A stretch of 64,000 nucleotides of DNA, from assembly GCF_054482595.1 (NCBI RefSeq), contig NZ_CM137008.1. One strand, given 5' to 3'. The translations under genes and the position numbers were made by a program. Of this stretch, positions 21,772 to 43,673 are shown piece by piece; the first letter of the stretch is position 1; every line of letters begins with the position of its first letter. A model generated the notes under the pieces. It was not told the DNA's origin, searched no databases, and worked only from the letters and a program-made list of their open reading frames with translations.

Positions 21772-22247
<476 letters not shown>

Positions 22248-22754: not shown

Positions 22755-22809
22755 TCCGCCGGGAGGCCCGCCCTCCCGCACTGTCATCGAATTCCCGTTA
22801 ACTCTTCAT

Positions 22810-22847: not shown

Positions 22848-22886
22848 TCCGCCACGATGGAGCCACTTTTTTAGGGAGGCTGCATC

Positions 22887-23675: not shown

Positions 23676-23699
23676 CATCCCCATCATTGAGGAAAACGA

Positions 23700-24716: not shown

Positions 24717-24720
24717 ATCG

Positions 24721-24808
24721 TAGGTCGGATAAGACGCCCCGGCGTCGCATCCGACAATGTGCAGGCGTTGATGCCGGATGCGGTGCAAGCACCTTATCCG
24801 GCCTACAG
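24721..24808. repeat. REP element pair between phnD and phnE
   Basis: ggtcggataagacgccccggcgtcgcatccgaca ... gatgccggatgcggtg...ccttatccggcctaca. Confidence 0.8.
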
Positions 24809-24821
24809 ACCGGAGCCAAAC

Positions 24822-25601
24822 ATGCAAACCATCACCATCGCCCCACCCAAGCGCAGCTGGTTCTCGCTTCTGAGCTGGGCCGTTGTACTCGCCGTGTTGG
24901 TCGTCTCGTGGCAGGGCGCGGAAATGGCCCCGCTTACGCTGATCAAAGACGGCGGCAACATGGCAACCTTCGCCGCCGACTTCTTCCCGCCCGATTTCAG
25001 CCAGTGGCAGGATTACCTCACCGAAATGGCCGTCACGCTGCAAATCGCCGTCTGGGGCACCGCGCTGGCGGTGGTTCTCTCCATCCCCTTTGGCCTGATG
25101 AGCGCCGAAAACCTGGTGCCGTGGTGGGTTTACCAGCCCGTTCGCCGCCTGATGGACGCCTGCCGCGCCATTAACGAAATGGTCTTCGCCATGCTGTTCG
25201 TGGTCGCCGTCGGCCTCGGCCCGTTCGCTGGCGTGCTGGCGCTGTTTATCCACACCACCGGCGTGCTCTCCAAGCTGCTTTCCGAAGCGGTGGAAGCGAT
25301 TGAACCCGGCCCGGTGGAAGGCATTCGCGCGACCGGCGCTAACAAGCTCGAAGAGATCCTCTACGGCGTGCTGCCGCAGGTGATGCCGCTGCTGATCTCC
25401 TACTCCCTCTATCGCTTCGAATCCAACGTCCGCTCGGCGACCGTCGTCGGCATGGTCGGCGCGGGCGGGATCGGCGTCACGCTGTGGGAAGCGATTCGCG
25501 GTTTCCAGTTCCAGCAAACCTGCGCCCTGATGGTGCTCATCATCGTCACGGTCAGCCTGCTGGATTTCCTCTCTCAACGGTTGCGTAAGCACTTTATCTG
25601 A
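24822..25601 (+). CDS. phnE: phosphonate ABC transporter permease (intact reading frame)
   Basis: 259 aa from ATG at 24822 ([19 protein letters not shown]...), uninterrupted to the stop; the track ORF starts upstream inside the REP element. Confidence 0.88.
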
Positions 25602-25621
25602 TTAGCGAGGCATTGATAGCT

Positions 25622-26347
25622 ATGCACTTGTCTACACATCCGACCAGCTACCCAACACGCTATCAGGAGATAGCCGCAAAACTTGAGCAGGAGCTTCGTC
25701 AACACTACCGCTGCGGCGACTATCTTCCCGCCGAGCAGCAACTGGCGGCGCGCTTTGCGGTGAACCGCCACACCCTGCGTCGCGCCATCGACCAACTGGT
25801 GGAAAAAGGCTGGGTACAGCGCCGTCAGGGCGTCGGCGTGCTGGTGCTGATGCGCCCGTTCGATTACCCGCTCAACGCCCAGGCGCGTTTTAGCCAGAAT
25901 CTGCTGGATCAGGGCAGCCATCCCACCAGCGAAAAACTGCTGTCGGTGCTGCGCCCGGCCTCCGGTCACGTCGCTGACGCGCTGGGGATCAAGGAGGGCG
26001 AGAACGTTATCCACCTGCGCACCCTGCGCCGGGTCAACGGCATCGCGCTCTGTTTGATCGACCACTACTTCGCGGACCTCACCCTCTGGCCGACGCTGCA
26101 ACGCTTCGACAGCGGCTCGCTGCACGATTTTCTGCGCGAGCAAACGGGGATTGCACTGCGCCGCAGCCAGACGCGGATCAGCGCCCGCCGCGCCCAGGCC
26201 AAAGAGAGCCAGCGTCTTGAAATCCCGAATATGTCGCCGCTGCTGTGCGTGCGCACCCTTAACCACCGTGACGGTGAAAGCAGCCCGGCGGAGTACTCCG
26301 TCAGCCTGACGCGCGCCGACATGATTGAATTCACTATGGAGCACTGA
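25622..26347 (+). CDS. phnF: GntR-family regulator of the phn operon
   Basis: 241 aa from ATG at 25622 (MHLSTHPTSYPTRYQEIAAKLEQ...); N-terminal GntR-type HTH. Confidence 0.9.
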   Translation: MHLSTHPTSYPTRYQEIAAKLEQELRQHYRCGDYLPAEQQLAARFAVNRHTLRRAIDQLVEKGWVQRRQGVGVLVLMRPFDYPLNAQARFSQNLLDQGSHPTSEKLLSVLRPASGHVADALGIKEGENVIHLRTLRRVNGIALCLIDHYFADLTLWPTLQRFDSGSLHDFLREQTGIALRRSQTRISARRAQAKESQRLEIPNMSPLLCVRTLNHRDGESSPAEYSVSLTRADMIEFTMEH

Positions 26348-26800
26348 ATGCACGCAGATACCGCGACCCGCCAGCACTGGATGTCCGTACTGGCGCACAG
26401 CCAACCGGCAGAACTGGCAGCACGCCTGAACGCGCTGAACATCACCGCCGACTATGAGGTGATCCGCGCCGCTGAAACTGGCCTGGTACAGATTCAGGCG
26501 CGGATGGGCGGCACCGGCGAACGCTTTTTTGCCGGCGACGCCACGCTCACCCGCGCCGCCGTACGCCTGACTGACGGCACGCTCGGCTACAGCTGGGTGC
26601 TGGGGCGCGACAAACAGCACACCGAACGCTGCGCGCTGATTGACGCGCTGATGCAGCAAACCCGCCACTTTCAAAACTTATTAGAAACTCTTATTGCCCC
26701 GCTGGACGCTGACCGTATGGCACGCATTGCCGCACGCCAGGCCGAAGTGAACGCCAGCCGGGTCGACTTCTTTACGATGGTTCGCGGAGACAACGCATGA
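26348..26800 (+). CDS. phnG: C-P lyase core complex subunit PhnG
   Basis: 150 aa; operon position. Confidence 0.9.
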
Positions 26801-27381
26801 CCCTGGAAACCGCTTTTATGCTTCCCGTGCAGGATGCCCAGCACAGTTTTCGTCGCCTGTTAAAGGCCATGAGCGAGCCGGGCGTGATTGTCGCCCTGCA
26901 TCAGCTCAAACGCGGCTGGCAGCCGCTGAATATCGCCACCACCAGCGTGCTGCTGACGCTGGCCGATAACGACACGCCGGTGTGGCTTGCCGCGCCATTG
27001 AGCAACGATATCGTCAGCCAGAGCCTGCGTTTTCATACCAACGCGCCGCTGGTCAGCCAGCCGGAACAGGCGACCTTCGCGGTAACGGATGAGGCGATTT
27101 CCAGCGAACAGCTTAACGCCCTTTCCACCGGCACCGCCGTTGCGCCGGAAGCGGGCGCAACGCTGATTTTACAGGTCGCCAGCCTGAGCGGCGGGCGCAT
27201 GCTGCGTCTCACCGGCGCGGGTATTGCCGAAGAACGAATGATCGCCCCGCAGCTGCCGGAGTGCATTCTGCACGAACTCACCGAGCGCCCGCACCCGTTC
27301 CCGCTCGGCATCGACCTGATCCTGACCTGCGGCGAGCGCCTGCTGGCTGTTCCGCGAACCACTCATGTGGAGGTGTGCTGA
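26797..27381 (+). CDS. phnH: C-P lyase core complex subunit PhnH
   Basis: 194 aa; 4-bp overlap with phnG. Confidence 0.9.
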
Positions 27382-28445
27382 TGTACGTTGCCGTGAAAGG
27401 GGGCGAGAAGGCGATCGACGCCGCCCACGCCCTGCAAGAGAGCCGACGCCGGGGCGATACCGATTTGCCTGAACTGAGCGTCGCCCAGATTGAACAGCAG
27501 CTTAACCTCGCAGTAGATCGCGTGATGACCGAAGGCGGCATTGCCGACCGCGAACTGGCGGCGCTGGCGCTGAAACAGGCCAGCGGCGATAACGTCGAAG
27601 CAATTTTCCTGCTGCGCGCCTACCGCACCACGCTGGCGAAGCTCGCGGTAAGCGAGCCGCTCGACACCACGGAGATGCGCCTCGAACGGCGTATTTCGGC
27701 GGTTTATAAAGACATTCCCGGCGGCCAGCTGCTTGGCCCAACCTACGACTACACCCATCGCCTGCTCGATTTCACCCTGCTGGCAAACGGCGAAGCGCCG
27801 ACGCTGACCACCGCCGACAGCGAACAACAGCCGTCGCCGCACGTTTTCAGCCTGCTGGCGCGTCAGGGGCTGGCGAAGTTTGAAGAGGATAGCGGCGCAC
27901 AGCCGGATGACATCACCCGCACGCCACCGGTTTACCCCTGCTCACGTTCTTCCCGCCTGCAACAGCTCATGCGCGGCGACGAAGGCTATTTGCTGGCGCT
28001 GGCCTACTCCACCCAACGCGGTTACGGGCGCAATCACCCGTTCGCGGGTGAAATCCGCAGTGGTTACATCGACGTGTCGATTGTGCCGGAAGAGCTGGGA
28101 TTTGCGGTGAACGTCGGCGAACTGCTGATGACTGAGTGTGAAATGGTCAACGGTTTTATCGACCCACCGGATGAATCTCCGCACTTCACGCGCGGCTACG
28201 GGCTGGTGTTCGGCATGAGCGAGCGCAAAGCGATGGCGATGGCGCTGGTCGACCGCGCTCTGCAAGCCCCGGAGTACGGCGAGCACGCGACAGGCCCGGC
28301 GCAGGATGAAGAGTTCGTGCTGGCACATGCCGACAACGTCGAAGCCGCAGGCTTTGTCTCGCACCTCAAACTCCCGCACTACGTCGATTTCCAGGCCGAA
28401 CTGGAGCTACTCAAACGTCTGCAACAGGAGCAGAACCATGGCTAA
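27381..28445 (+). CDS. phnI: C-P lyase core complex subunit PhnI
   Basis: 354 aa from ATG at 27381 preceded by ggagg; the track ORF is extended upstream. Confidence 0.9.
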   Translation: MYVAVKGGEKAIDAAHALQESRRRGDTDLPELSVAQIEQQLNLAVDRVMTEGGIADRELAALALKQASGDNVEAIFLLRAYRTTLAKLAVSEPLDTTEMRLERRISAVYKDIPGGQLLGPTYDYTHRLLDFTLLANGEAPTLTTADSEQQPSPHVFSLLARQGLAKFEEDSGAQPDDITRTPPVYPCSRSSRLQQLMRGDEGYLLALAYSTQRGYGRNHPFAGEIRSGYIDVSIVPEELGFAVNVGELLMTECEMVNGFIDPPDESPHFTRGYGLVFGMSERKAMAMALVDRALQAPEYGEHATGPAQDEEFVLAHADNVEAAGFVSHLKLPHYVDFQAELELLKRLQQEQNHG

Positions 28446-29283
28446 TCTGAGCGGCTACAACTTTGCCTACCTCGACGAGCAGACCAAACGCATGATCCGC
28501 CGCGCCATCTTAAAAGCGGTGGCAATCCCCGGTTATCAGGTGCCGTTTGGCGGGCGCGAGATGCCAATGCCGTACGGCTGGGGAACCGGCGGCATACAGC
28601 TCACCGCCAGCGTGATTGGCGAAAGCGACGTGTTGAAGGTGATTGACCAGGGCGCGGATGACACCACCAACGCCGTGTCGATCCGCAACTTCTTTAAGCG
28701 CGTGACCGGGGTGAATACCACCGAACGCACGGATGATGCGACGGTTATCCAGACGCGTCACCGCATCCCCGAAACGCCGCTGACCGAAGATCAGATAATT
28801 ATCTTCCAGGTGCCGATCCCCGAACCGCTGCGCTTTATCGAGCCGCGCGAAACGGAAACCCGCACCATGCACGCGCTGGAGGAGTACGGCGTGATGCAGG
28901 TGAAGCTGTATGAAGATATCGCCCGCTTCGGTCATATCGCCACCACCTACGCCTATCCGGTGAAGGTAAACGGGCGCTACGTAATGGACCCGTCGCCGAT
29001 CCCGAAATTTGATAACCCGAAAATGGACATGATGCCCGCCCTGCAACTGTTCGGCGCAGGGCGCGAAAAGCGCATCTATGCGGTGCCGCCGTTTACCCGC
29101 GTGGAAAGTCTCGATTTCGACGATCACCCGTTCACCGTTCAGCAGTGGGATGAGCCATGCGCCATCTGCGGAACGACCCACAGCTATCTTGATGAAGTGG
29201 TGCTGGATGACGCCGGAAACCGCATGTTTGTCTGCTCCGATACCGATTATTGCCGCCAACAGAGCGAGGCAAAAAGCCAATGA
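28438..29283 (+). CDS. phnJ: C-P lyase catalytic subunit PhnJ
   Basis: 281 aa from ATG at 28438 (MANLSGYNFAYLDEQTKRMIRR...); C-terminal cysteine cluster (CAICGTTHSYLDE...FVCSDTDYC). Confidence 0.9.
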   Translation: MANLSGYNFAYLDEQTKRMIRRAILKAVAIPGYQVPFGGREMPMPYGWGTGGIQLTASVIGESDVLKVIDQGADDTTNAVSIRNFFKRVTGVNTTERTDDATVIQTRHRIPETPLTEDQIIIFQVPIPEPLRFIEPRETETRTMHALEEYGVMQVKLYEDIARFGHIATTYAYPVKVNGRYVMDPSPIPKFDNPKMDMMPALQLFGAGREKRIYAVPPFTRVESLDFDDHPFTVQQWDEPCAICGTTHSYLDEVVLDDAGNRMFVCSDTDYCRQQSEAKSQ

Positions 29284-30038
29284 ATCAACCGTTACTTTCG
29301 GTCAATAACCTGACCCACCTTTACGCGCCGGGCAAAGGTTTTAGCGATGTCTCTTTTGATTTATGGCCGGGAGAAGTGCTGGGCATTGTCGGGGAATCCG
29401 GCTCCGGGAAGACCACGCTGCTGAAATCAATCTCCGCGCGTCTGACGCCGCAACTGGGGGAGATTCACTATGAAAACCGTTCCCTCTATGGCATGAGCGA
29501 GGCCGACCGCCGTCGCCTGCTGCGCACCGAATGGGGCGTAGTGCATCAGCATCCGCTCGACGGCCTGCGCCGCCAGGTGTCGGCAGGCGGCAATATCGGC
29601 GAGCGGCTGATGGCAACCGGGGCGCGTCATTACGGCGACATTCGCGCTACCGCGCAGAAGTGGCTGGAAGAGGTGGAAATTCCCGCCAACCGGATCGACG
29701 ACCTGCCGACCACCTTTTCCGGCGGTATGCAGCAGCGTTTGCAGATTGCCCGCAACCTGGTGACGCATCCGAAGCTGGTGTTTATGGACGAGCCAACCGG
29801 TGGGCTGGATGTGTCGGTGCAGGCGCGCCTGCTCGATCTGCTGCGCGGCCTGGTGGTGGAGCTGAACCTGGCGGTGGTGATTGTCACCCACGATTTAGGC
29901 GTCGCCCGCCTGCTGGCGGACCGTTTGCTGGTGATGAAGCAGGGGCAAGTGGTGGAGAGTGGGTTAACCGACCGCGTGCTCGACGACCCGCATCATCCGT
30001 ATACACAGCTGCTGGTGTCATCGGTTTTGCAGAATTGA
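29280..30038 (+). CDS. phnK: C-P lyase system ABC-type ATPase PhnK
   Basis: 252 aa from ATG at 29280 ([15 protein letters not shown]...); Walker [10 protein letters not shown]. Confidence 0.9.
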
Positions 30039-30039
30039 G

Positions 30040-30129
<90 letters not shown>

Positions 30130-30148
30130 CCGAACCACGAGGCGAAAA

Positions 30149-30829
30149 ATGATTAACGTACAAAACGTCAGTAAAACCTTCATCCTGCACCAGCAAAACG
30201 GCGTGCGCCTGCCCGTCCTCAACCGCGCCTCGCTCATCGTCAACGCGGGCGAATGCGTGGTGCTCCACGGCCATTCCGGCAGCGGAAAATCAACCCTGCT
30301 ACGCTCGCTGTACGCCAACTATCTGCCCGACGAAGGGCAAATCCAGATCAAACACGGCGACGAATGGGTCGATCTGGTCACCGCGCCAGCGCGCAAAGTG
30401 GTGGAGATCCGCAAAACCACCGTCGGCTGGGTGAGCCAGTTTCTGCGCGTCATCCCGCGTATTTCAGCACTGGAAGTGGTGATGCAGCCGCTGCTCGATA
30501 CCGGCGTACCGCGTGAAGCCTGCGCCGCTAAAGCCGCGCGTCTGCTCACCCGCCTGAACGTGCCGGAACGCCTGTGGCACCTGGCGCCATCGACCTTCTC
30601 CGGCGGCGAACAGCAGCGCGTCAACATCGCCCGCGGCTTTATCGTCGACTACCCCATTCTGCTGCTCGACGAACCTACCGCCTCGCTGGACGCTAAAAAC
30701 AGCGCCGCCGTAGTGGAACTGATCCGCGAAGCAAAAGCCCGTGGCGCGGCCATCGTCGGCATTTTCCATGACGAAGCCGTACGCAATGACGTCGCCGACC
30801 GCCTGCACCCAATGGGAGCCTCTGCATGA
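30149..30829 (+). CDS. phnL: C-P lyase system ABC-type ATPase PhnL
   Basis: 226 aa from ATG at 30149 ([15 protein letters not shown]...); Walker [10 protein letters not shown]. Confidence 0.9.
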
Positions 30830-31962
30830 TTATCAATAACGTCAAACTGGTGCTGGAAAACGAAGTGGTAAACGGTTCGCTGGAGATGCAGGACGGCGAA
30901 ATCCGCGCCTTTGCCGAAAGCCAGAGCCGCCTACCGGAGGCGATGGACGGCGAAGGCGGCTGGCTGCTGCCGGGGCTGATTGAGCTGCATACCGATAATC
31001 TGGATAAATTCTTCACCCCGCGCCCGAAAGTTGACTGGCCTGCCCACTCGGCGATGAGCAGCCACGACGCGCTGATGGTGGCGAGCGGCATCACCACCGT
31101 ACTGGACGCCGTGGCAATTGGCGACGTGCGCGACGGCGGCGATCGGCTGGAGAATCTGGAGAAGATGATCAACGCCATCGAAGAGACGCAGAAACGCGGC
31201 GTCAACCGCGCCGAGCACCGTCTGCATCTGCGCTGCGAACTGCCGCATCACACCACGCTGCCGCTGTTTGAAAAACTGGTGCAGCGCGAGCCGGTGACGC
31301 TGGTGTCGCTGATGGACCACTCACCGGGCCAGCGCCAGTTCGCCAACCGCGAGAAGTATCGCGAATATTATCAGGGCAAATACTCGCTCACCGACGCGCA
31401 GATGCAGCAGTATGAAGAGGAACAGCTGGCGCTTGCTGCACGCTGGTCGCAGCCAAATCGCGAATCCATCGCCGCAATGTGCCGCGCGCGACACATTGCG
31501 CTCGCCAGCCACGATGACGCCACCCACGCCCATGTTGCCGAATCCCACCAGCTTGGCAGCGTGATCGCCGAATTTCCCACTACGTTCGAAGCGGCGGAAG
31601 CCTCGCGCAAGCATGGCATGAACGTGCTGATGGGCGCGCCGAATATTGTGCGCGGCGGTTCGCACTCCGGCAACGTGGCGGCCAGTGAACTGGCGCAGCT
31701 TGGCCTGCTGGATATCCTCTCTTCCGACTACTACCCCGCCAGCCTGCTGGATGCGGCGTTCCGCGTCGCCGATGACGAGAGCAACCGCTTTACGCTGCCG
31801 CAGGCGGTGAAGCTGGTGACTAAAAATCCAGCGCAGGCGCTTAATCTCCAGGATCGCGGGGTGATTGGCGAGGGCAAACGCGCCGACCTGGTGCTGGCGC
31901 ATCGCAAGGGCAACCACATTCATATCGACCACGTCTGGCGTCAGGGTAAAAGGGTGTTCTGA
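30826..31962 (+). CDS. phnM: amidohydrolase-family phosphonate pathway enzyme PhnM
   Basis: 378 aa; 4-bp overlap with phnL. Confidence 0.9.
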
Positions 31963-32519
31963 TGACGGGAAAACTGATTTGGTTAATGGGGCCGTCCGGC
32001 TCCGGGAAAGATAGCCTGCTGGCGGAACTCCGCCTGCGGGAACAAACTCAGTTACTGGTGGCGCATCGCTACATCACGCGCGACGCCAGCGCTGGAAGCG
32101 AAAACCATATCGCCCTGAGCGAGCAGGAGTTTTTTACCCGCGCGGGGCAAAACCTACTGGCCTTAAGCTGGCACGCTAACGGTCTGTATTATGGCGTCGG
32201 CGTCGAGATCGACCTCTGGCTGCACGCCGGATTCGACGTGCTGGTCAACGGCTCACGCGCCCATCTGCCGCAGGCGCGGGCGCGCTATGCATCGGCGCTG
32301 CTGCCCATCTGCTTACAGGTGTCGCCGGAGATCCTGCGCCAGCGCCTGGAAAACCGTGGTCGTGAAAACGCCAGTGAAATTAACGCCCGGCTGGCGCGCG
32401 CTGCCCGCTATACTCCACAGGATTGCCATACGCTCAATAATGACGGCAGCCTGCGCCAGTCGGTCGACACGCTGCTGACGCTGATTCATCAGAAGGAGAA
32501 ACACCATGCCTGCTTGTGA
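31962..32519 (+). CDS. phnN: ribose 1,5-bisphosphate phosphokinase PhnN
   Basis: 185 aa; P-loop GPSGSGKDS; 1-bp overlap with phnM stop. Confidence 0.9.
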
Positions 32520-32940
32520 GCTTCGCCCGGCCACGCAGTACGACACCGACGCGGTTTACGCGCTGATTTGTGAGCTAAAACAGGCGGAGTTTGACCATCA
32601 CGCGTTTCGCGTGGGCTTTAACGCCAACCTGCGTGACCCAAACATGCGCTACCATCTGGCGCTGCTGGATGGCGAAGTTGTTGGCATGATCGGCCTGCAT
32701 TTGCAGTTTCATCTGCATCATGTCAACTGGATCGGCGAAATTCAGGAGCTGGTGGTGATGCCGCAGGCGCGCGGTCTGAACGTCGGCAGTAAGTTACTGG
32801 CGTGGGCAGAAGAAGAAGCCCGCCAGGCCGGGGCCGAAATGACCGAGCTTTCCACCAACGTGAAGCGCCACGACGCGCACCGTTTCTATCTGCGCGAAGG
32901 CTACGAGCAGAGCCATTTCCGCTTCACCAAGGCGCTGTAA
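32506..32940 (+). CDS. phnO: aminoalkylphosphonate N-acetyltransferase PhnO
   Basis: 144 aa GNAT-type; overlaps phnN 3' end. Confidence 0.88.
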
Positions 32941-32941
32941 C

Positions 32942-33700
32942 ATGAGCCTGACCCTCACGCTCACGGGCACCGGCGGCGCACAGGGCGTTCCGGCATGGGG
33001 CTGCGAGTGCGCGGCCTGCGCACGAGCGCGACGCTCGCCGCAGTATCGCCGCCAGCCGTGCAGCGGCGTAGTGAAGTTTAACGAGGCTGTCACCCTGATC
33101 GACGCCGGGCTGCACGATCTCACCGATCGCTGGTCGCCAGGATCGTTCCAGCAGTTTTTGCTGACGCATTATCATATGGATCACGTTCAGGGACTGTTTC
33201 CGCTGCGCTGGGGCGTGGGCGATTCGATCCCGGTCTACGGCCCGCCGGATGAACAGGGCTGCGACGATCTGTTTAAACATCCGGGCCTGCTTGATTTCAG
33301 CCACACGGTGGAACCGTTTGTGGTGTTCGATTTGCAGGGGTTGCAGGTGACACCGCTGCCGCTAAACCACTCAAAACTGACCTTCGGTTATCTGCTGGAA
33401 ACGGCACACAGCCGGGTGGCGTGGCTGTCTGACACCGCAGGCCTGCCGGAAAAAACGCTGAAATTTTTACACAATAATCAGCTACAGGTAATGGTGATTG
33501 ATTGCAGCCACCCGCCGCGCGAGGATGCACCGCGTAATCACTGTGATTTAAATACCGTGCTTGCGCTGAATCAGGTTATCCGCTCGCCACGGGTGATTCT
33601 GACCCATATCAGCCACCAGTTTGATGCGTGGCTGATGGAGAACGCGCTGCCGTCAGGGTTTGAGGCGGGGTTTGATGGGATGGAGATTGGGGTGGCGTGA
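32942..33700 (+). CDS. phnP: metallo-beta-lactamase-fold phosphodiesterase PhnP
   Basis: 252 aa; HxHxDH motif ([10 protein letters not shown]). Confidence 0.9.
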
Positions 33701-33732
33701 TGGGGGAGAATGTGCGCGCTGATGCCCTCATC

Positions 33733-33820
33733 CCGGCCCTCTCCCACAGGGAGAGGGAGAAAATCACCCCGTGCACCATCGGTCCCCTCGCCCCTTTGGG
33801 GAGAGGGTTAGGGTGAGGGG
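33733..33820. repeat. GC-rich palindromic intergenic element (family uncertain, possibly Box C-like)
   Basis: ccctctccc-aca-gggagaggg followed by cccctcgcccctttggggagagggttagggtgagggg between convergent phnP and yjdP. Confidence 0.5.
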
Positions 33821-33843
33821 CGATGCCAGCACCCGAGCCTACC

Positions 33844-34173
33844 TCACCGCCCATACTCATCTTCCATTCTCCGCTCTTCATCCTCCAGTTGCCGACGCTC
33901 CTGATCAAGCTGACGTTGGCGATCGTCCAGCTGCCTGCGGCGATCTTCAAACTGGCGGCGGCGGTCGTCATATTGTCTGCGCCGATCGTCGCTCACTTCA
34001 CGCTGCCAGCCGTCGTCGCGCGAATCTTCATAATCTCGCCCACGGTCAGGGTTATAAGCATCGTTAATCGCCTGCTGAATATTGCCAATGGTGTCGTCGA
34101 TAATATCGGCCTGGGCCGGTACGGTGGTCAGCGTGAGCAGGGTGAAAAAAAAGAGCGTGGAGTGGCGTTTCAT
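33844..34173 (-). CDS. yjdP: small secreted low-complexity protein YjdP
   Basis: 109 aa; N-terminal signal peptide; C-terminal DDRRRQ/ERRQ repeats; convergent with phnP as in K-12. Confidence 0.75.
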   Translation of the reverse strand: MKRHSTLFFFTLLTLTTVPAQADIIDDTIGNIQQAINDAYNPDRGRDYEDSRDDGWQREVSDDRRRQYDDRRRQFEDRRRQLDDRQRQLDQERRQLEDEERRMEDEYGR

Positions 34174-34241
34174 AAACTCGGCCTCGCAACAAAGTTAATA
34201 CAAGGTAGGCAAAGGTGCCTGTTACGAGTAGAGGAGGATTC

Positions 34242-36503
34242 TCAATTCTCTTGCCCCAGCGCCTGCGCCAACTGCGCACGGGTAAAGGGTTTGCGCAACA
34301 GCGCCACGTCTGGCAGCGCGGGGTTATGGCTGGGGCGTAAATCCTGACCGCTGATGAGTAGCAGCGTCAGGTGCGGGTAAAGTTTGCGGGCCGCATTGAC
34401 CACTTCTGCGCCGCTCATGCCGCCGGGGAGCATTAAATCGCTGATAAAAATATCGATTTCTGCTGATGCCGCCAGCAGATCCAGCGCCTGTTCGCCGCTG
34501 CTTGCTTCCAGCGTCAAATAGCCCAGCAGGTGCAACTGTTCGCAGATGGTCTGGCGCACCGCGGCTTCATCTTCCAGCACTAACACCAGTTTATCGCCGC
34601 TGACAGAAGCCTGTTCTACTGCCGCTGGCGATAGGTTTTTCGCCGCCGTCAGCGCGCGGGGAAGCTGTAATCTGACCGTTGTCCCCTGCCCCGGCGCGCT
34701 TTCAATTTCAACGCGCCCACCGGACTGGCGCACAAAACCATAGACCATCGACAAACCCAGCCCGCTGCCGCTGCCCGTCTGTTTGGTGGTAAAGAATGGC
34801 TCAAATACCTGGCTTTTCACCGCCTGCGACATACCGCTGCCATGATCGATGACCTCCAGTGCCACCATGTCCTGACGCTGCCCACTGCTGCGAGTAACGC
34901 GCTGATTCCAGGTACGAATTTTGATGATTCCCGTCTGCCCTTCCATCGCGTCACGGGCGTTCATCACCAGGTTGATGATGGCATTTTCCAGTTGGCTGAC
35001 GTCAATCCACGCGGGCCACGCCGGAGACTGCGCTTCAATCTCCAGCGCCAGCGTTGCCGGTAAGGAGTGGCGCATTAATTCGCTTAACTCTTCCAGCAAT
35101 GTTTTCAGTTCAACGGCTTGCGGATGTAAGGACTGCTTGCGGGAAAACGCCAGCAGTCGTTGTGTCAGTAGCGCCCCACGTTCGGCAGCTTGCAGCGCCC
35201 GCTGTATTCGCGGCGCGTCTGGCGAGTCCGGATTCACCAGCTCCAGGCTGCCAATAATCACCGCCAGCAGATTATTAAAATCATGGGCCAGCCCGCCCGT
35301 CAGTTGCCCGACCGCTTTCAGTTTCTGGCTGTGTAATAGCGCCTCTTCCAACCCCTGCCGCTCAGTTTGGGCAATCTCCATCTGCGTGGTCTTCTCTTTT
35401 AGCAGCCGTGAGGTTCGTTCGAGTGACTCGGTATTGCGGGCAAAAACGTTAAAGGCGCGCGCCAGTTCACCCAACTCATCACGCCGCTGTAACGCCGGAA
35501 AAGTGACGTCCGCTTCGCCGTACGCCAGGCGGCTCATGGCGCGGGAAATCGCCGTCAGGTTAGTGCCGAGGTTGCGATAGATATACCAGCCGGCAAACGC
35601 GGTGATCACCACCGCTAACAGGGCGAAAATCATGATCACCCTCTCGCCGGAGCGCAAATCCTGGTAACTTTGCGCCACGCGCTGACCGGAGAGCGTCGCC
35701 ACCTGTTCGGCGTAACGGTTGATGTCGCCATTGAGGATCGCCACCAGCGCTTTGATGTGAAACATATACCAGCTGATTGCCAGATCGCTTTGCTCCAGAG
35801 CGGCAGAAAGCGGCGCGAGTTTACGCATTTCATCATTGAAATCATTGAGTAACGTATTAACCAATGGCATATCGCTGTGGGTCGGCAACGCAGACATTAC
35901 CCCGACCAGTTGATGAATAATCGCCTGCGGCGCGGGGGTGGCAATAGCGGCAACAATCAGTCGGTTCATCTCGTTAAGCAAAATATCATCTTGCGCGTGA
36001 GTGACTTTTTGCAGATGCCGCAGATAACTTAAGTTTTGATACAGCGAACTTAACAGCGCGTTGCGCTCCAGATGCCGCCTTTGCCCGCGCTCCAGCATAC
36101 CGCCGACGCTGGTTTGCAGTTCGTTGCTACGCGTGATGATTCGCGTCACCAGCCCGGCTTCCTGCTGCGCTAAAGGCGCGTTCGCCAGTTGTGCAAGCGA
36201 GCTTTTTAATGCCCGCTGTGTCTCCTGCAACCGCTCGGCTTCGCCTTTATATTCCAGCGCTCCCACCACCTGCGACAATCGCACCGCCGCCGTTGCCACG
36301 TTTGCCGTGTCGCGCGCCAGATTCAGGCTGCCGGTCATATCATCCACCGTTTGCTGCTGCACCAGCTCCTGCATCTGGCTGGCATGACGAAAGCCCATTA
36401 CCGCCACGCCGCTGACCATCAACGTCACCGCCACCACCAGCAAATTCAAAAGCAGCAATCGCCCGCGCGCGCTGGCAAAAAAATGACGTCCGGGGTGCGC
36501 CAT
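34242..36503 (-). CDS. hybrid sensor histidine kinase (periplasmic sensor, HAMP, HisKA, HATPase, C-terminal receiver; no HPt domain)
   Basis: ~753 aa from ATG at 36503 (MAHPGRHFF...) with GGAG 8 nt upstream; two TM segments flank a ~300 aa periplasmic region; H-box GGLAHDFNNLL; G-boxes DHGSGM / GSGLGLSMV; receiver with ISDLMLPGG; protein ends ~25 aa after the receiver. Confidence 0.85.
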   Translation of the reverse strand: MAHPGRHFFASARGRLLLLNLLVVAVTLMVSGVAVMGFRHASQMQELVQQQTVDDMTGSLNLARDTANVATAAVRLSQVVGALEYKGEAERLQETQRALKSSLAQLANAPLAQQEAGLVTRIITRSNELQTSVGGMLERGQRRHLERNALLSSLYQNLSYLRHLQKVTHAQDDILLNEMNRLIVAAIATPAPQAIIHQLVGVMSALPTHSDMPLVNTLLNDFNDEMRKLAPLSAALEQSDLAISWYMFHIKALVAILNGDINRYAEQVATLSGQRVAQSYQDLRSGERVIMIFALLAVVITAFAGWYIYRNLGTNLTAISRAMSRLAYGEADVTFPALQRRDELGELARAFNVFARNTESLERTSRLLKEKTTQMEIAQTERQGLEEALLHSQKLKAVGQLTGGLAHDFNNLLAVIIGSLELVNPDSPDAPRIQRALQAAERGALLTQRLLAFSRKQSLHPQAVELKTLLEELSELMRHSLPATLALEIEAQSPAWPAWIDVSQLENAIINLVMNARDAMEGQTGIIKIRTWNQRVTRSSGQRQDMVALEVIDHGSGMSQAVKSQVFEPFFTTKQTGSGSGLGLSMVYGFVRQSGGRVEIESAPGQGTTVRLQLPRALTAAKNLSPAAVEQASVSGDKLVLVLEDEAAVRQTICEQLHLLGYLTLEASSGEQALDLLAASAEIDIFISDLMLPGGMSGAEVVNAARKLYPHLTLLLISGQDLRPSHNPALPDVALLRKPFTRAQLAQALGQEN

Positions 36504-36616
36504 ATCACGCTCCGTGAAGAAAAATCGCAATATGACAAATATGAACGGCTTCTGACATTTTGCATTTACTTTCCTGTGATGGAGTGCTGATATCGACAAC
36601 CTCGCAGGAGTCCACC
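36504..36616. promoter_or_regulatory. divergent promoter region between the sensor kinase gene and the ABC transporter operon
   Basis: 113-bp AT-rich spacer between divergent start codons; direct repeats tgacaaatatgaa (36533-36545) and tgacattttgcat (36553-36565) spaced 20 bp apart. Confidence 0.5.
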
Positions 36617-38137
36617 ATGAACAGCACGCCAGTTCTGGAGATGCGCAATATTGCCAAAGCCTTCGGCAAATTTTATGCACTCAAAGGGGTGGATTTGACG
36701 GTCTACCCTGGCGAGATCCATGCCCTGATGGGGGAAAACGGCGCGGGAAAAAGCACGCTGATGAAGGTGCTGGCGGGGGCGTATACCGCCACCAGCGGCG
36801 AGATCCTCATAGACGGCAAGCCCTTTCACATTCGCACGCCAAAAGATGCCTTAAGCGCCGGTATTACGCTGATTTATCAGGAGATGCAGCTGGCACCGAA
36901 TCTGTCGGTGGCAGAAAATATTTTTCTCGGCAGCGAGCTTTCCCACGGCGGGCTGGTGCAGCGTAAAGAGATGCTAGTGCAGGCGCAAAAAGTGATCGAC
37001 CGCCTCGGCGCGCAGTTTAACGCCAGCGATAAGGTCATGACGCTGACCATTGCCGAGCAACAGCAGGTCGAAATCGCCCGCGCACTACATCGCAACAGCC
37101 GCATTCTGGTGATGGACGAACCCACCGCTGCCCTCTCCTCCCGTGAAACTCACCGTCTGTTTGAACTGATTATGCGGCTGCGCGATGAAGGGATGGCGAT
37201 TATCTACATCAGCCACCGTATGGCGGAAGTGTATGAGCTTTCCGATCGCGTCAGCGTGCTGCGCGACGGGCAATACGTTGGCAGCCTGACCCGCGATAAC
37301 CTCAATGCCGGGGAGCTGGTGCGGATGATGGTCGGCAGGCCACTGAGCGATCTGTTCAATAAAGAGCGCGATATCCCGCTCGGTAAAGCCCGCCTGAATG
37401 TTCACCACCTGACCGACGGCGGCAAAGTCCAGCCGAGTAGCCTGCTGGTGCGTTCCGGCGAAATTGTTGGCCTCGCCGGACTGGTGGGTGCCGGACGTTC
37501 CGAACTGGCGCAGTTGATCTTCGGCGTGCGGAAAGCGACAGGCGGAATGATTGAAGTCGATGGTGAACCGGTGGTGATCCACTCCCCGCGCGAAGCCATC
37601 GATCTTGGCATTGGTTTTCTCACCGAAAACCGCAAAGAACAAGGCTTATTCCTTGAAATGGCAGCAGCCGAAAACATCACCATGGCAACCCTGGAGCGCG
37701 ATGCCCGCTGGGGAATGCTCAATCGCAAAAAAGCGCAAACCATTTCCGATGACGCCATTAAGTTGCTCAACATTCGCGTGCCTCACGCCCAGGTACGCGC
37801 GGGCGGGCTTTCCGGCGGCAATCAGCAAAAACTGTTGATCTCCCGCTGGGTGGCGATTGGCCCGCGCATTTTACTGCTCGATGAACCCACCCGCGGCGTG
37901 GACGTTGGCGCCAAAAGCGAGATCTACCGGATCATGAACGAGATGGCGCGCAAGGGCGTGGCGATCCTGATGATCTCCAGCGAACTGCCGGAGATAGTGG
38001 GAATGAGCGATCGCGTCTATGTGATGCGCGAAGGCAGCATTGCCGGTGAGTTAAACGGCAAAAACATCACCCAGGAAAACATTATGACCTTAGCGACTGG
38101 CGTCAACGACGCCCATTCCCAGGCGGTAACCTCATGA
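36617..38137 (+). CDS. sugar ABC transporter ATP-binding protein, tandem ABC domains (RbsA/CUT2-type)
   Basis: 506 aa from ATG at 36617 ([16 protein letters not shown]...) preceded by aggag; two Walker A motifs ([18 protein letters not shown]) and two signature motifs (LSGGNQQK in the second half). Confidence 0.88.
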
Positions 38138-39108
38138 CGACCTCTGCAAAAACCTCTGCCAAAAAAATGCTGATGAGCGATCTGATGCAAACGGTCGGCA
38201 TCTTGCCCATTTTGATTCTGATCGTGGCGGTATTTGGCTTTATCGCGCCAAACTTTTTTACCGAAAGCAACCTGCTGAATATTACCCGCCAGGCATCGAT
38301 CAACATTGTTCTGGCGGCGGGGATGACCTTCATCATTTTGACCGGCGGGATCGATCTTTCCGTGGGTTCGATCCTCGGCACCACAGCGGTGGCGGCGATG
38401 GTCGTCTCCCTTAGCCCTGAGTTCGCCATGCTGTCGATCCCGGCAGCGCTGATGCTCGGCCTGCTGCTGGGGCTGTTCAACGGCGCGCTGGTGGCCTTTG
38501 CCGGATTGCCACCGTTTATCGTCACGCTTGGCACCTATACGGCGCTGCGCGGGGCGGCGTATCTGCTGGCGGACGGCACCACGGTTATCAACTCCAACAT
38601 TAATTTCGAGTGGATAGGCAATAACTATCTCGGGCCGGTCCCGTGGCTGGTGGTGATTGCCCTCGCAGTGATTGTGCTGTGCTGGTTTATTCTGCGCCGC
38701 ACCACGCTTGGCGTTCATATCTACGCCGTCGGCGGCAATATGCAGGCGGCGCGTCTTACCGGCATTAAGGTCTGGCTGGTGCTGCTGTTTGTTTATGGTA
38801 TGAGCGGCCTGCTTTCTGGGCTTGGCGGGATTATGAGCGCCTCACGGCTGTACAGCGCCAACGGCAACTTAGGCATGGGTTACGAACTGGATGCCATTGC
38901 AGCGGTGATCCTCGGCGGCACCAGTTTTGTCGGCGGCATCGGCACCATCACCGGCACGCTGGTCGGCGCGCTAATTATCGCCACGCTCAACAATGGCATG
39001 ACCTTAATGGGCGTCTCTTACTTCTGGCAACTGGTGATCAAAGGGGCGGTGATCATCATTGCGGTGCTGATCGACAAATACCGTACCCGACACCATCAAA
39101 GTGCATAA
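38134..39108 (+). CDS. sugar ABC transporter permease (RbsC-like)
   Basis: 324 aa polytopic membrane protein; 4-bp ATGA overlap with the ATPase gene. Confidence 0.85.
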
Positions 39109-39126
39109 ACACATGAGGAATACAGC

Positions 39127-40068
39127 ATGAGATTGAAGCCCTTAGTGACCGCGCTCTATGCAGGCGCGCTGCTGACCGCAGCACCGTTCGCCCAGGCGAA
39201 AGAACTGAAATCGATAGGCGTAACGGTGGGCGATCTGGCGAACCCGTTCTTCGTGCAGATCACCAAAGGCGCGGAGCTGGAAGCACGCAAACTGGCAGGC
39301 GATAACGTCAAAGTGACGCTGGTTTCCAGCGGCTACGATCTGGGTCAGCAGGTGTCGCAGATAGACAACTTTATCGCCGCTAACGTCGATATGATTATCC
39401 TCAACGCTGCCGATTCAAAAGGGATCGGCCCAGCGGTGAAACGGGCGAAAGATGCCGGGATCGTAGTCGTCGCGGTTGACGTAGCGGCAGAAGGTGCTGA
39501 TGCCACCATCACCTCCGATAACACCCAGGCGGGCGAAATGGCCTGTAAATACATCACCGATCGCCTGAAAGGCAAAGGCAATGTGGTGATCATCAACGGC
39601 CCGCCGGTATCCGCCGTGCAAAACCGCGTCGAAGGATGCCAGACTGAATTTAAACGCCATCCTGACATCAAAGTGCTCTCTGACAACCAGAACGCGAAAG
39701 GCAGTCGTGAAGGCGGGCTGGAGGTAATGACGGGACTGCTGGCGGCAAATCCGAAGATCGACGGCGTATTTGCGATTAACGATCCCACCGCAATCGGTGC
39801 CGATCTGGCAGCAAAACAGGCGCAACGTAACGAGTTCTTTATTGTTGGTGTGGACGGAAGCCCGGACGCCGAAGAGGCGCTCAAGCGTGAGAACTCGTTG
39901 TTTGTCGCTACTCCGGCGCAAGATCCCCAGGTGATGGCAGCGAAAGCGGTGGAAATTGGCTACGACATTTTGCAGGGCAAACCTGCGCCGAAAGAGCCGG
40001 TGCTGATCCCGGTGACGATGATCGATAAAAACAACGTCGGCAATTACAAAGGCTGGACGGTGAAATAA
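39127..40068 (+). CDS. periplasmic sugar-binding protein (type I PBP, RbsB-like)
   Basis: 313 aa; signal peptide MRLKPLVTALYAGALLTAAPFAQA; RBS gagga upstream. Confidence 0.85.
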   Translation: MRLKPLVTALYAGALLTAAPFAQAKELKSIGVTVGDLANPFFVQITKGAELEARKLAGDNVKVTLVSSGYDLGQQVSQIDNFIAANVDMIILNAADSKGIGPAVKRAKDAGIVVVAVDVAAEGADATITSDNTQAGEMACKYITDRLKGKGNVVIINGPPVSAVQNRVEGCQTEFKRHPDIKVLSDNQNAKGSREGGLEVMTGLLAANPKIDGVFAINDPTAIGADLAAKQAQRNEFFIVGVDGSPDAEEALKRENSLFVATPAQDPQVMAAKAVEIGYDILQGKPAPKEPVLIPVTMIDKNNVGNYKGWTVK

Positions 40069-40122
40069 GTCCACACGCCGGGCGGCGCAGCTGCCCGGTC
40101 ACCGCTAAGGAGAACGCTTTCG

Positions 40123-40806
40123 ATGAAACGCTCCGCTATAAACGACATTCTCGGCCATACACGGCAATTCTTTTCGCAACATGACGTACATCTGCCGCCC
40201 TTTGCCAGTTTCTCGCCTGCTCAATGGCAGCAGCTCGACACCGCCGCGTGGGAGGAGGTTTTTGATCTTAAACTCGGCTGGGATGTTACCGCTTTTGGTC
40301 GCAACAACTTTGCAGCACACGGGCTGACGCTGTTTACCCTACGTAACGGCTCAGCAAAAGGAATGCCGTATGTGAAATGTTACGCCGAGAAGATCATGCA
40401 TGTGCGCGATGCGCAGGTCACGCCAATGCATTTTCACTGGCGTAAGCGTGAGGACATTATCAATCGCGGCGGCGGTAATTTAATTGTTGAACTGTGGAAT
40501 GCCGATAGTAACGAGCAAACGGCTGATAGTGACATTACGGTGGTGATCGACGGCTGCCGCCAGAAACATACTGCAGGCACTCAGTTGCGCCTGTCTCCCG
40601 GCGAAAGTATCTGCCTGCCGCCCGGCCTGTATCACAGCTTTTGGGCGGAAACCGGCTTTGGCGATGTTCTGGTTGGCGAAGTCTCTTCTGTCAATGACGA
40701 CGACCACGATAACCACTTTTTACAGCCACTGGACCGCTACAACCTGATTGACGAAGACGAACCTGCACAGTTGGTATTGTGTAACGAATACCGCCAGTTC
40801 CGCTGA
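40123..40806 (+). CDS. cupin-fold sugar isomerase, D-lyxose/D-mannose isomerase-like
   Basis: 227 aa; RBS aaggag; His-rich metal-site region (VTPMHFHWRKRE); length and context match my recollection of the characterised pathogenic E. coli D-lyxose isomerase family (not verified by search). Confidence 0.7.
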   Translation: MKRSAINDILGHTRQFFSQHDVHLPPFASFSPAQWQQLDTAAWEEVFDLKLGWDVTAFGRNNFAAHGLTLFTLRNGSAKGMPYVKCYAEKIMHVRDAQVTPMHFHWRKREDIINRGGGNLIVELWNADSNEQTADSDITVVIDGCRQKHTAGTQLRLSPGESICLPPGLYHSFWAETGFGDVLVGEVSSVNDDDHDNHFLQPLDRYNLIDEDEPAQLVLCNEYRQFR

Positions 40807-40820
40807 ATAAGGATAACGTT

Positions 40821-41681
40821 ATGCCATTGATTTCTCTCGCTGAAGGGCTGGCACATGCCCGCGAACATCACTATTCGTTAGGTGCGTTTAATGTGCTGGA
40901 CTCGCACTTTTTACGCGCCTTGTTTGCTGCTGCCAGACAAGAACGTTCGCCCTTTATTATCAACATTGCCGAAGTACATTTTAAATATATCTCGCTGGAT
41001 TCCCTGGTCGAGACAGTGAAATTTGAAGCGGCGCGTCATGCCATTCCGGTGGTGTTAAATCTCGATCACGGACTGCATTTTGAATCGGTGGTGCAAGCGT
41101 TGCGGCTGGGATTCAGCTCGGTAATGTTTGATGGCTCCACGCTGGGGTATGAAGAAAATGTCCGCCAGACGCGGGAAGTGGTGAAAATGTGCCATGCCGT
41201 TGGCGTATCGGTAGAAGCTGAACTGGGCGCGGTGGGTGGCGACGAAGGCGGTGCACTCTATGGCCATGCCGATGAATCCCTGTTTACCGATCCGCAACTG
41301 GCGCGTGATTTTGTCGACCGTACCGGCATTGACGCGTTGGCCGTGGCGATTGGCAATGCACACGGCAAATATCGCGGCGAACCGAAACTCGATTTCCCGC
41401 GCCTCGACGCTATCCGCCAGCAGGCTGCTATCCCGCTGGTATTACACGGCGGCTCAGGGATTAGCGATGCCGATTTCCGCCGCGCCATCGAACTGGGTAT
41501 CCACAAAATCAATTTCTACACTGGCATGTCGCAAGCGGCGCTGGCTGCCGTTGAGGCCCGAATGGCGTACCGTCAGCCGATGTATGACGAGTTTGCCGAG
41601 TTACTGCTGGCAGTGGAAGCCGCCATCAGCGATACGGTTGCACAACAGATGCGTATTTTTGGCAGTGCGGGGCAGGCATGA
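40821..41681 (+). CDS. class II ketose-bisphosphate aldolase family protein (GatY/KbaY/FbaA-like)
   Basis: 286 aa; alignable by eye with GatY (NLDHG, SVMFDGS, SVEAELG, ALAVAIGNAHG, LVLHGGSG motifs). Confidence 0.8.
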   Translation: MPLISLAEGLAHAREHHYSLGAFNVLDSHFLRALFAAARQERSPFIINIAEVHFKYISLDSLVETVKFEAARHAIPVVLNLDHGLHFESVVQALRLGFSSVMFDGSTLGYEENVRQTREVVKMCHAVGVSVEAELGAVGGDEGGALYGHADESLFTDPQLARDFVDRTGIDALAVAIGNAHGKYRGEPKLDFPRLDAIRQQAAIPLVLHGGSGISDADFRRAIELGIHKINFYTGMSQAALAAVEARMAYRQPMYDEFAELLLAVEAAISDTVAQQMRIFGSAGQA

Positions 41682-42679
41682 TGGAGCGTAAAGGAATTAT
41701 CGCCGCAGGCAATATGTTGGTTGACCACGTCCATCAGATTATCCAGTGGCCAGAGCGCGGCTGGCTGGCGGAGATCACCCACAGCGAACGCTCCACCGGC
41801 GGTGCGCCGCTTAACGTCCTGCTGACGCTGGCGAAAATGCGCACCGGGCTGCCGTTACAGGCGGTTGGGCTAATCGGTCAGGACAGCGACGGCGATTACA
41901 TCATGGCGATGCTTGAGCAATATCACGTCAATCGTCAGCATGTGCAGCGCACTACCTTTGCCCCGACGTCGATGTCGCAGGTGATGACAGACCCAAGCGG
42001 GCAGCGGACGTTTTTCCATTCGCCGGGTGCAAACAGACTTTTGGATCTTCCGGCGTTCGATCAGCTCGATAACACCATGAAGATTTTCCATCTCGGCTAT
42101 TTACTGTTGCTCGACAGCCTGGATATGCCGGACGATGTTTACGGCACCCGTAGCGCACGCCTGCTGGCGCAAATGCGTGATACTGGCTTTGAAACCTCAC
42201 TCGACCTGGTCTCCCGTAAGGGCGATCCGCGTTATCAGCCGCTGGTGCTGTCCGCGTTGCGCCATCTGGATTATCTGGTAATTAACGAACTGGAGGCCGG
42301 GGAGTTTAGCGGGCTGGAAATTCGGTTACCCAACGGCGAACCGCATATCGCGCATATTGCTGCCGCCGCGCGTGAACTGTTAGATGCGGGCGTGCGCCAG
42401 CGGGTGGTGATCCACTGCCCGGAAGGGGCGTGGGGAGAGACCCCAGAACAGGGCGGCGTGTGGATCCCTTCGCAAAAGTTAGAACAACGGGAAATTATCG
42501 GCAGCGTCGGCGCGGGCGATGCATTTTGTGCCGGATTTTTATATGGCTGCCATGAACGCTGGACGCTTACCGAGAGCATCAAACTGGCACACGCCTGCGC
42601 GCGGGCAAGCCTGTTATGCGCCAATGCCATCGACGGGGCGAAAACGCTGGAAGAGCTGCAAACAGAAATGTCGGATTAA
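41678..42679 (+). CDS. pfkB/ribokinase-family sugar kinase
   Basis: 333 aa; C-terminal GAGDAF motif (GSVGAGDAFCAGFLYG); 4-bp overlap with the aldolase gene. Confidence 0.8.
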   Translation: MMERKGIIAAGNMLVDHVHQIIQWPERGWLAEITHSERSTGGAPLNVLLTLAKMRTGLPLQAVGLIGQDSDGDYIMAMLEQYHVNRQHVQRTTFAPTSMSQVMTDPSGQRTFFHSPGANRLLDLPAFDQLDNTMKIFHLGYLLLLDSLDMPDDVYGTRSARLLAQMRDTGFETSLDLVSRKGDPRYQPLVLSALRHLDYLVINELEAGEFSGLEIRLPNGEPHIAHIAAAARELLDAGVRQRVVIHCPEGAWGETPEQGGVWIPSQKLEQREIIGSVGAGDAFCAGFLYGCHERWTLTESIKLAHACARASLLCANAIDGAKTLEELQTEMSD

Positions 42680-43383: not shown

Positions 43384-43673
43384 GGTTACACTCCGCATCA
43401 TTCATCTGATTAATCATTGTGCGTACTTCTTGTCGAAGTGAAAGCTGAAAGTAATATAAATAATAAAAATATAAGTCAGGTCACATTATTGATGATAGTA
43501 ATAAATATGCCGTACTTTTCCCTCTTCAGCACAAATGCCTAATAAAATGGATCGTTCCGCTCACACTTCCACTTATTAAAGTCGCAATTTCCCAATTATG
43601 ATAACGCCAGCTTTAAATGACGTATTTTGCATGGATTACATATTTACGACATAAATGATAAATGGAGATTTAT

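Follow-up and report, generated by a model that had tools for sequence, protein, structure and literature searches.

An inverted Box C pair and its allelic variation at the phnP-yjdP spacer of Escherichia coli

Introduction

What are the G/C-rich palindromes that lie between the convergent genes phnP and yjdP of Escherichia coli, how did they come to be there, and do they serve the cell? We addressed these questions for a 64,000-nt stretch of E. coli DNA (hereafter the window), in which the phnP-yjdP spacer and its surroundings are 100% identical to those of strain XH990. An initial annotation, made from the letters of the window alone, had noted two such motifs, able to form hairpins, and had likened them to Box C-type or similar dispersed repeats of enterobacteria rather than to REP. 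Here we identify the element, follow it through other genomes and weigh what it may do.

Results

The palindromes match a known repeat family

Both motifs are present where the initial annotation had placed them, CCCTCTCCC-ACA-GGGAGAGGG at 33737-33757 and CCCCTCGCCCCTTTGGGGAGAGGGTTAGGGTGAGGGG at 33784-33820, and the flanking stop codons, one on each strand, agree with its description of a site between convergent genes (Table 1). The string GGGAGAGGGTTAGGGTGAGGG has one match in the 64 kb and none in 100 shuffles, the 9-3-9 palindrome has one match versus 0.02 expected, and the published hairpin core CCCTCNCCC-N3-6-GGGNGAGGG has two matches versus none expected.

The element has been named repeatedly: Box C in 1992 (Bergler), PIT in 2000 (Hoyne et al.), TMECO in 2015 (Holder et al., PMC4666352) and HPG1/HPG2 in 2016 (Kaplan et al., PMC5100583). 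BoxC, the PIT element and the TMECO triplex motif were equated by Holder et al. 2015 (PMC4666352); Box C goes unmentioned in Kaplan et al. 2016 (PMC5100583). Bergler 1992, which PMC4666352 gives as its BoxC reference, holds the first description, at fabI/envM.

A generic unit consists of three 9-nt arms, CCCTCNCCC, GGGAGAGGG and GGGTGAGGG, and the TMECO pattern of Holder et al. 2015 reads 5'-CCCTCNCCC-N3-6-GGGNGAGGG-N3-GGGNGAGGG-3' (PMC4666352). Comparison with this published pattern gave a strict match for the right unit (33785-33819, + strand) and a match with one substitution, in the third arm (GGATGAGGG), for the left unit (33725-33757, - strand). The right unit is letter-identical to MG1655 TMECO copies no. 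7, 11 and 15, and the left unit equals no. 1 and no. 4 (CCCTCTCCCTGTGGGAGAGGGCCGGGGTGAGGGC) save for a single G-to-A in the third arm. The founding K-12 copy upstream of fabI (envM; published no. 9, retrieved segment 4206-4240) corresponds to the reverse complement of the right unit, with loop 1 as the sole difference. HPG1 (GGGAGAGGGTTAGGGTGAGGG) lies exactly at 33799-33819, and HPG2 (GGGAGAGGGCCGGGGTGAGGG) differs from the left unit by one change, which leaves the four G-tracts of the unit intact.

MG1655 has 23 TMECO copies, 15 with a TTA loop (type A) and 8 with a CCG loop (type B), and the two types stand in inverted configuration at five K-12 loci (PMC4666352), a pairing that we confirmed directly in the sequences. 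The window likewise has a type B unit (CCG) on the - strand and a type A unit (TTA) on the + strand, 27 nt apart. As TMECO no. 22 (4,314,285-4,314,320; Table 1 of PMC4666352) lies within the K-12 yjdP-phnP spacer, the orthologous locus had already been catalogued. The TMECO pattern, the multicopy status described below, the fabI copy and K-12 no. 22 together bear out the earlier suggestion of a dispersed Box C-type intergenic repeat, and we regard it as practically certain that 33708-33820 is an inverted Box C pair made of one type B and one type A unit. The phnP-yjdP palindromes are an already-known element and no new kind.

The view that they are not REP also holds, the REP core in the strings quoted by the initial annotation (GCCGGATG / CTTATCCGGCCTAC) being absent from 33701-33843 and models of REP-derived naRNA4 matching only elsewhere in the window. 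No Rfam family reached its gathering score at the spacer when the whole window was searched, and an E-value search with Rfam 15 over 33000-34600 returned chance-level microRNA and snoRNA models as its best results (at most 21 bits, E at least 0.86). The annotation label due is Box C/TMECO pair, and the short ORFs at 33697-33816 and 33710-33811, which are translations of the repeat, are to be disregarded.

Table 1. Coordinates of the phnP-yjdP spacer and the parts of the Box C pair in the window.
Feature	Position	Strand	Remarks
phnP stop codon	33698-33700	+	
phnP-yjdP spacer	33701-33843		143 nt
Type B-side extension GAATGTGCGCGCTGATG	33708-33724		Part of the extended (~50-56 bp) Box C unit
Type B Box C/TMECO unit CCCTCTCCC-TGT-GGGAGAGGG-CCG-GGATGAGGG	33725-33757	-	
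Left unit, G-arm 2	33725-33733		
Left unit, G-arm 1	33737-33745		
Left unit, C-arm	33749-33757		
Inter-C-arm spacer	33758-33784		27 nt; AGAAAA (TTTTCT on the B-unit strand) plus A-unit 5' extension GCACCATCGGTC
Type A 'mm' unit CCCTCGCCC-CTTTG-GGGAGAGGG-TTA-GGGTGAGGG-G	33785-33820	+	
Right flank CGATGCCAGCACCCGAGCCTACC	33821-33843		Confined to alleles that have, or formerly had, the pair
yjdP stop codon	33844-33846	-	

Anatomy and extent of the pair

The initial annotation had set the element at 33733-33820. Both motifs lie within that span, but its left start has to be moved: a third arm (CCCTCATCC, 33725-33733) had been overlooked, so that the left unit begins at 33725 and not at 33733. Its placing of the element next to the left edge of an accessory block is right only in rough terms, as the block runs from ~34242, some 420 nt off, with yjdP intervening.

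An alignment of ten K-12 loci, with copies taken from the published K-12 table, revealed extensions on both sides of the 33-36-nt core. The resulting units of ~50-56 nt fit the 56-bp length given for Box C in PMC2267715. To the left of the type B unit, GAATGTGCGCGCTGATG reads CATCAGCGCGCAC on the unit strand, and the same sequence adjoins the G-end of the TGT-loop type B units at K-12 hrpB-mrcB and ilvC-ppiC, is found in a weaker form at K-12 xynR-argF and adjoins the type B unit of the E. coli plasmid pMTY18781-3 as well. With this extension at 33708-33724, the repeat comes as near as 8 nt to the stop codon of phnP. On the 5' side, most K-12 type B units are preceded by TTTTCT (TTTTCC or TTCTGC in three) and K-12 type A units by a GCACAATCGGTC-like sequence; a T-rich run before HPG2 was described by Kaplan et al. 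2016 (PMC5100583). The right flank CGATGCCAGCACCCGAGCCTACC (33821-33843) probably belongs to the element too. It has no clear counterpart in the short (27-nt-type) spacers of CFT073, R2 and Escherichia albertii, and CCAGCAC follows the type A G-end at two of the three other long-linker K-12 paired loci (fepB-entC, and alx-sstT in the form CCAGCAT).

The C-rich arms of the two units face each other and the G-rich ends point outward, a layout that among the five K-12 pairs is found only at lldD-trmL. As the units are mutually inverted, the whole region is one long imperfect palindrome: the outer arms (21 nt) are 81% complementary, and the quasi-palindrome measures ~100 nt.

Copies in E. coli and beyond

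We searched 5,426 complete E. coli genomes with the 143-nt spacer and found 86,794 places, spread over 5,413 of them. The median was 17 per genome and XH990 had 15, so the copy count that the initial annotation had put forward as a check shows that the sequence is not single-copy. Almost all places were chromosomal, with 63 of the 86,794 on plasmids. Genomes with a CFT073-like short spacer had only one place each in a related search, and published copy numbers run to 29 in strain 55989 versus 1 in IHE3034 (Holder et al., PMC4666352).

The same authors report the motif from 262 proteobacterial genomes (PMC4666352). When species-representative genomes were scanned with the probe CCCTCAYCCNNNCCCTCTCCC, the matches listed all came from one Archangium metagenome-assembled genome, Archangium sp. 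MAG-75 (JAEUJS01, Myxococcota). Its 1.1 Mb of retrieved sequence holds at least 162 three-armed units with the arms CCCTCACCC / CCCTCTCCC / GGGAGAGGG, the same arm sequences as in E. coli; these units fall into two loop subfamilies, and the majority are single and not paired. Copies were also found on plasmids of Rhizobium, Sinorhizobium and Azospirillum, and Enterobacter asburiae has 143 copies.

Phage records yielded matches in 3 of 50,697 cases, each over about one-third of the query, and Holder et al. describe the motif as having no association with phages or transposons (PMC4666352). The Campylobacter phage records MG065686.1 and MG065691.1 contain, at two places each, a 42-nt stretch with 97.6% identity to the type A unit of E. 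coli; contamination with host or cloning DNA may explain these matches. Two of the 23 K-12 copies, at 282,101 and 289,246, lie inside the annotated cryptic prophage CP4-6, one of them beside the integrase-core gene yagA.

An allelic series at phnP-yjdP

The spacer takes many forms among E. coli strains. In SCU-102 it is 158 nt long, with a full type A unit beside phnP and a full type B unit beside yjdP. K-12 and 02E060 have this form minus 12 nt between GGGG repeats within B (146 nt), and the 143-nt spacer of the window has B beside phnP and A beside yjdP. In CNR65D6 and CUWW06 (95 nt) the interior is gone and the A and B arms are fused into overlapping chimeric units, and in O157:H7 (76 nt) the junction falls at a repeated AGGGGCGA. 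A single arm remains in UMNK88 (42 nt) and in AHB7 (34 nt); CFT073 and R2 are unit-free (27 nt). The deletions in the K-12, O157 and CNR65D6/CUWW06 spacers thus run between repeated arms. In an evenly spaced sample of 40 rows from the match list, each standing for ~2.5% of records, the 146-nt form made up roughly 55%, the 27- and 34-nt forms together ~30% and the O157 form ~5%. In UMNK88, which has the 42-nt remnant spacer, the annotation gives yjdP as a pseudogene interrupted by an internal stop.

Three assemblies of E. albertii have a unit-free short spacer like that of CFT073, which suggests that the unit-free form is ancestral and that the pair was gained. With the polarity taken from this one outgroup species, a gain is the simplest reading. 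E. albertii lacks phnC-phnP; yjdP is there followed directly by yjdN and yjdM, and ~75 nt of the phnP 3' end persist beside yjdP. Citrobacter was tried as an outgroup and set aside, its spacer being occupied by toxin-antitoxin or other genes. In Citrobacter farmeri and in a C. europaeus-like contig, toxin-antitoxin pairs (ParE/Phd-like and HigB/HigA-like) lie between yjdP and phnP (retrieved records 1827-2362 and 1987-2657), showing that the same site takes insertions in another genus.

Compared with K-12, the window is 81% identical in the 250-nt bin that holds the element versus 92.5-99.6% in the neighbouring phn bins, and the Box C pair accounts for the poor alignment of the 143-nt spacer. 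The allelic series agrees with the published 'palindrome effect' deletions and hypervariability of Box C/TMECO loci; Holder et al. found TMECO loci changed in ~60% of strain comparisons versus fewer than 10% at control regions (PMC4666352). Filled, interior-deleted and unit-free forms also occur at a second locus, next to genes for a glycosyltransferase, a lysine-N-methylase and flgN/flgM/flgA, with the unit-free form in an ST131 strain. We take this locus to be the Flag-2 flagellar gene cluster.

Reversed order of the units in the window

Read from phnP to yjdP, the window has B then A; the order A then B, whole or as remnants, is that of SCU-102, K-12, O157 and CNR65D6. Only 22 of the 5,426 complete genomes share the order of the window, and the next-best full-length match is a paralogous locus. 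Against the K-12 segment, the window pair scores 45.5 when reverse-complemented versus 19 in direct orientation, and across the A unit plus its extension 47 of 49 positions are then identical; blastn likewise gave a minus-strand match to K-12 of 51 nt at 94%.

An in-situ flip would fit the left flank and the right-flank CGATGCC, which are common to both orders. Against a simple flip, the two orders differ in the subtype of their B units and in the middle part of the spacer. Unflipped in silico, the window allele found its best match at 84% (SCU-102), and the window pair resembles an unrelated-locus pair, on pMTY18781-3 (92/109), more than it does the reversed SCU-102 pair (87/113). The differences in B subtype and spacer, together with the closer unrelated pair, make ectopic conversion or independent insertion live alternatives. 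We also considered in-situ inversion as a general property of such pairs and rejected it: in-silico flipped versions of lldD-trmL and hrpB-mrcB matched no genome better than the native order did (best 81% and 92%), which indicates that inversion is no routine outcome.

Predicted folding and published structures

Both motifs are predicted to form stable hairpins, as the initial annotation had supposed. For the left unit this is a perfect 9-bp stem (DNA, -9.8 kcal/mol; RNA, -18 kcal/mol), and the right-unit hairpin has similar stability in DNA (-9.0 kcal/mol) and reaches -21.5 kcal/mol in RNA. Folding of the whole spacer separated the strands: the + strand (-71.6 kcal/mol, z = -2.7) folds better than its shuffles, whereas the - strand does not (z = -1.1). 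On the G-rich strand, a predicted G-quadruplex (-12.6 kcal/mol as DNA) would be competitive with the hairpins.

The right unit is the unmutated counterpart of a four-G-to-C control oligonucleotide printed in the CD/NMR study of Holder et al. 2015 (PMC4666352), in which the type A mm oligonucleotide melts at 74 °C and the triplexes formed in vitro melt at 70-82 °C by CD and NMR. Ion-dependent switching was seen by CD in vitro by Kaplan et al. 2016 (PMC5100583). According to the published data, the isolated G-rich strand folds into a stable triplex or G-quadruplex, only duplex forms when the complement is present, and no triplex footprint or DMS protection appears in vivo. PIT elements had neither promoter nor terminator activity (Hoyne and Maher 2002).

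Other features of the window

Apart from the spacer, a 100-nt unit made of REP sequences is repeated 4.8 times in tandem at 21768-22247, at the K-12 position yjdN-yjdM, with five Rfam naRNA4 (nucleoid-associated RNA 4) matches; we take this to be the known REP325 array. The naRNA4 matches lie at 21771-22247, 24723-24803 and 53840-54023, three of them beyond the five of the array. Two other regions, 15936-16101 and 51317-51371, score above the Rfam gathering threshold for the enterobacterial sRNA STnc630 and a SECIS element, the latter within the fdhF coding region.

At the site that rpiB and the als (allose) operon occupy in K-12, a ~9.2-kb cassette (~34242-43452) separates yjdP from yjcS in the window; its genes encode a hybrid sensor kinase/response regulator, a sugar ABC transporter, a D-lyxose/D-mannose-family isomerase, an aldolase, a kinase and a response regulator. 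The sensor kinase adjoins yjdP in O157:H7 and in the Citrobacter europaeus-like contig too. The phn region (21765-34151) is 96.2% identical to K-12 overall (92.5-99.6% in 250-nt bins), which looks like high divergence for two strains within the species E. coli, and it may be an imported haplotype.

Discussion

The window pair shares with Box C/PIT/TMECO the sequence, the three-arm layout, the TTA and CCG loops, the inverted intergenic pairing of A and B, and the variability between strains. It departs from the catalogued copies in that the left unit misses the strict pattern by one G-to-A, that the order is the reverse of that in K-12 and SCU-102, and that its C-arms face each other, as in only one of the five K-12 pairs. 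HPG1/HPG2 (PMC5100583) are the same elements, opposite-strand pairing included, seen from the G-quadruplex viewpoint, so that only the structural reading differs. With REP, BIME and REPIN sequences the pair has in common that it is short, G/C-rich, palindromic, intergenic, multicopy, often arranged in inverted doublets and locally unstable; however, Box C units have three arms where REP has two, and no RAYT-like partner is known for Box C. Like ERIC/IRU and other MITEs, it is a composite of ~110-150 nt whose terminal inverted repeats are long and imperfect and which recurs at unrelated loci of several genera, but we found neither a target-site duplication nor a parent transposon for the window pair. 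This likeness to ERIC, as to RSA, is one of general repeat features rather than of aligned consensus sequences. What is added here is modest: the reversed unit order, an allelic series polarised by an outgroup, and a composite pair that recurs.

We consider it probable that the best overall explanation is a Box C pair that is passenger DNA, prone to form structures and apt to provoke rearrangements. In this reading, the element would be non-coding DNA with no dedicated cellular function, and its main effect would be mechanical. Its arms, when single-stranded, could fold into alternative hairpins, a purine-motif intrastrand triplex or a G-quadruplex. Such transient folding during replication or repair might then lead to slippage between the short direct G/C repeats and hence to deletions, to strand switching or recombination between the inverted arms, or to ectopic exchange with other Box C copies, leaving the phnP-yjdP spacer structurally hypervariable between strains. 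From these patterns we infer that the rearrangements result from folding and that the element has no function, and for this mechanism at phnP-yjdP our confidence is a little better than even. A lack of function would be consistent with CFT073, R2 and E. albertii, which do without the element and have a 27-nt or similarly short spacer. On the other side, no triplex footprint was seen in vivo, which weakens the proposed step from folding to rearrangement, and flipped versions of two other pairs matched no genome. The strong conservation of the arm sequences across distant bacteria also counts against a passenger; such breadth is hard to square with junk and hints at sequence-specific recognition or at a mechanism of spreading.

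Two functional readings are weaker than the passenger reading. The pair could act in RNA, as part of the 3' untranslated regions of phnP and yjdP, which are transcribed towards each other, its hairpins terminating transcription or blocking 3' exonucleases as REP does. The convergent position speaks for this, as do the strong predicted RNA hairpins and the + strand z score, the report by Kaplan et al. 2016 (PMC5100583) that convergent genes flank 6 of 16 HPG1 copies, and the lack of any other terminator-like site in the spacer; our scan for terminators and promoters found none in 33701-33843 on either strand, and no promoter was predicted in 33500-34400. Yet neither hairpin is followed by a U-tract on either strand, the - strand fold is no better than its shuffles, and the published PIT assays detected no terminator activity (Hoyne and Maher 2002). 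In addition, ~30% of the sampled genomes and E. albertii manage without the element and many alleles are partly deleted, and we consider an RNA-level role unlikely. A switch at the DNA level between duplex, hairpin and G-quadruplex or triplex, tuning local transcription or replication as Kaplan et al. 2016 proposed (PMC5100583), seems to us more unlikely still. The exact HPG1 sequence, the HPG2-like left unit with its intact G-tracts, a G-quadruplex predicted to beat the hairpins on the single strand and the ion-dependent CD switching in vitro (PMC5100583) all point towards it, but only duplex forms with the complementary strand, no DMS protection was seen in vivo, and the copies have no consistent distance or orientation to genes (Holder et al., PMC4666352). 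At this locus the element stands at the 3' ends of both genes and not near a promoter.

A further possibility concerns the origin of the pair and is compatible with the passenger explanation: the pair may be, or have been, a mobile non-autonomous element, MITE- or REPIN-like, that entered phnP-yjdP once E. albertii and the CFT073 lineage had branched off, with both orientations arising by independent insertion or ectopic conversion. We hold this to be a possible but less than probable history. As the unit-free short spacer is common to the E. albertii assemblies and CFT073/R2, a gain of ~116-130 nt is simplest. The composite of GTGCG(C/T)GCTGATG extension, B, spacer and A on pMTY18781-3 has chromosomal counterparts in ~740 genomes, and composites with the same order and extension occur at unrelated loci: pMTY18781-3 and the chromosomal Flag-2 locus (92/109 positions identical to the window pair) and the E. 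hormaechei megaplasmid pMB8072_1 (82/99). The greater similarity of the window pair to the plasmid pair than to its own-locus counterpart in SCU-102 points the same way, and the low counts in short-spacer genomes, with the contrast between 55989 and IHE3034, suggest lineage-specific expansion. Mobility is harder to reconcile with the two filled/empty comparisons (phnP-yjdP and Flag-2), in which neither a target-site duplication nor a clean boundary is seen; the left extension, read by eye, resembles the empty-site sequence at 14 of 18 positions, which makes the insertion boundaries ambiguous. Nor is an associated transposase known, Holder et al. report no link to mobile elements (PMC4666352), the phage matches are few and partial, and the units of the Archangium genome are mostly single. 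Somewhat more doubtful, in our judgement, is the specific form of this idea in which the ~110-150-nt composite (GCGCGC-containing extension, B, spacer and A), and not the single 35-nt unit, is what spreads, having been gained at phnP-yjdP after the split and later reversed or re-acquired in a rare lineage.

The pair makes phnP-yjdP a natural series of deletion alleles with one order-reversed allele at a single site, useful for studies of rearrangement at non-B DNA and of the origin of Box C. If the composite does spread as a unit, the filled, empty and flipped alleles of this one site would offer a means of tracing how Box C has moved.
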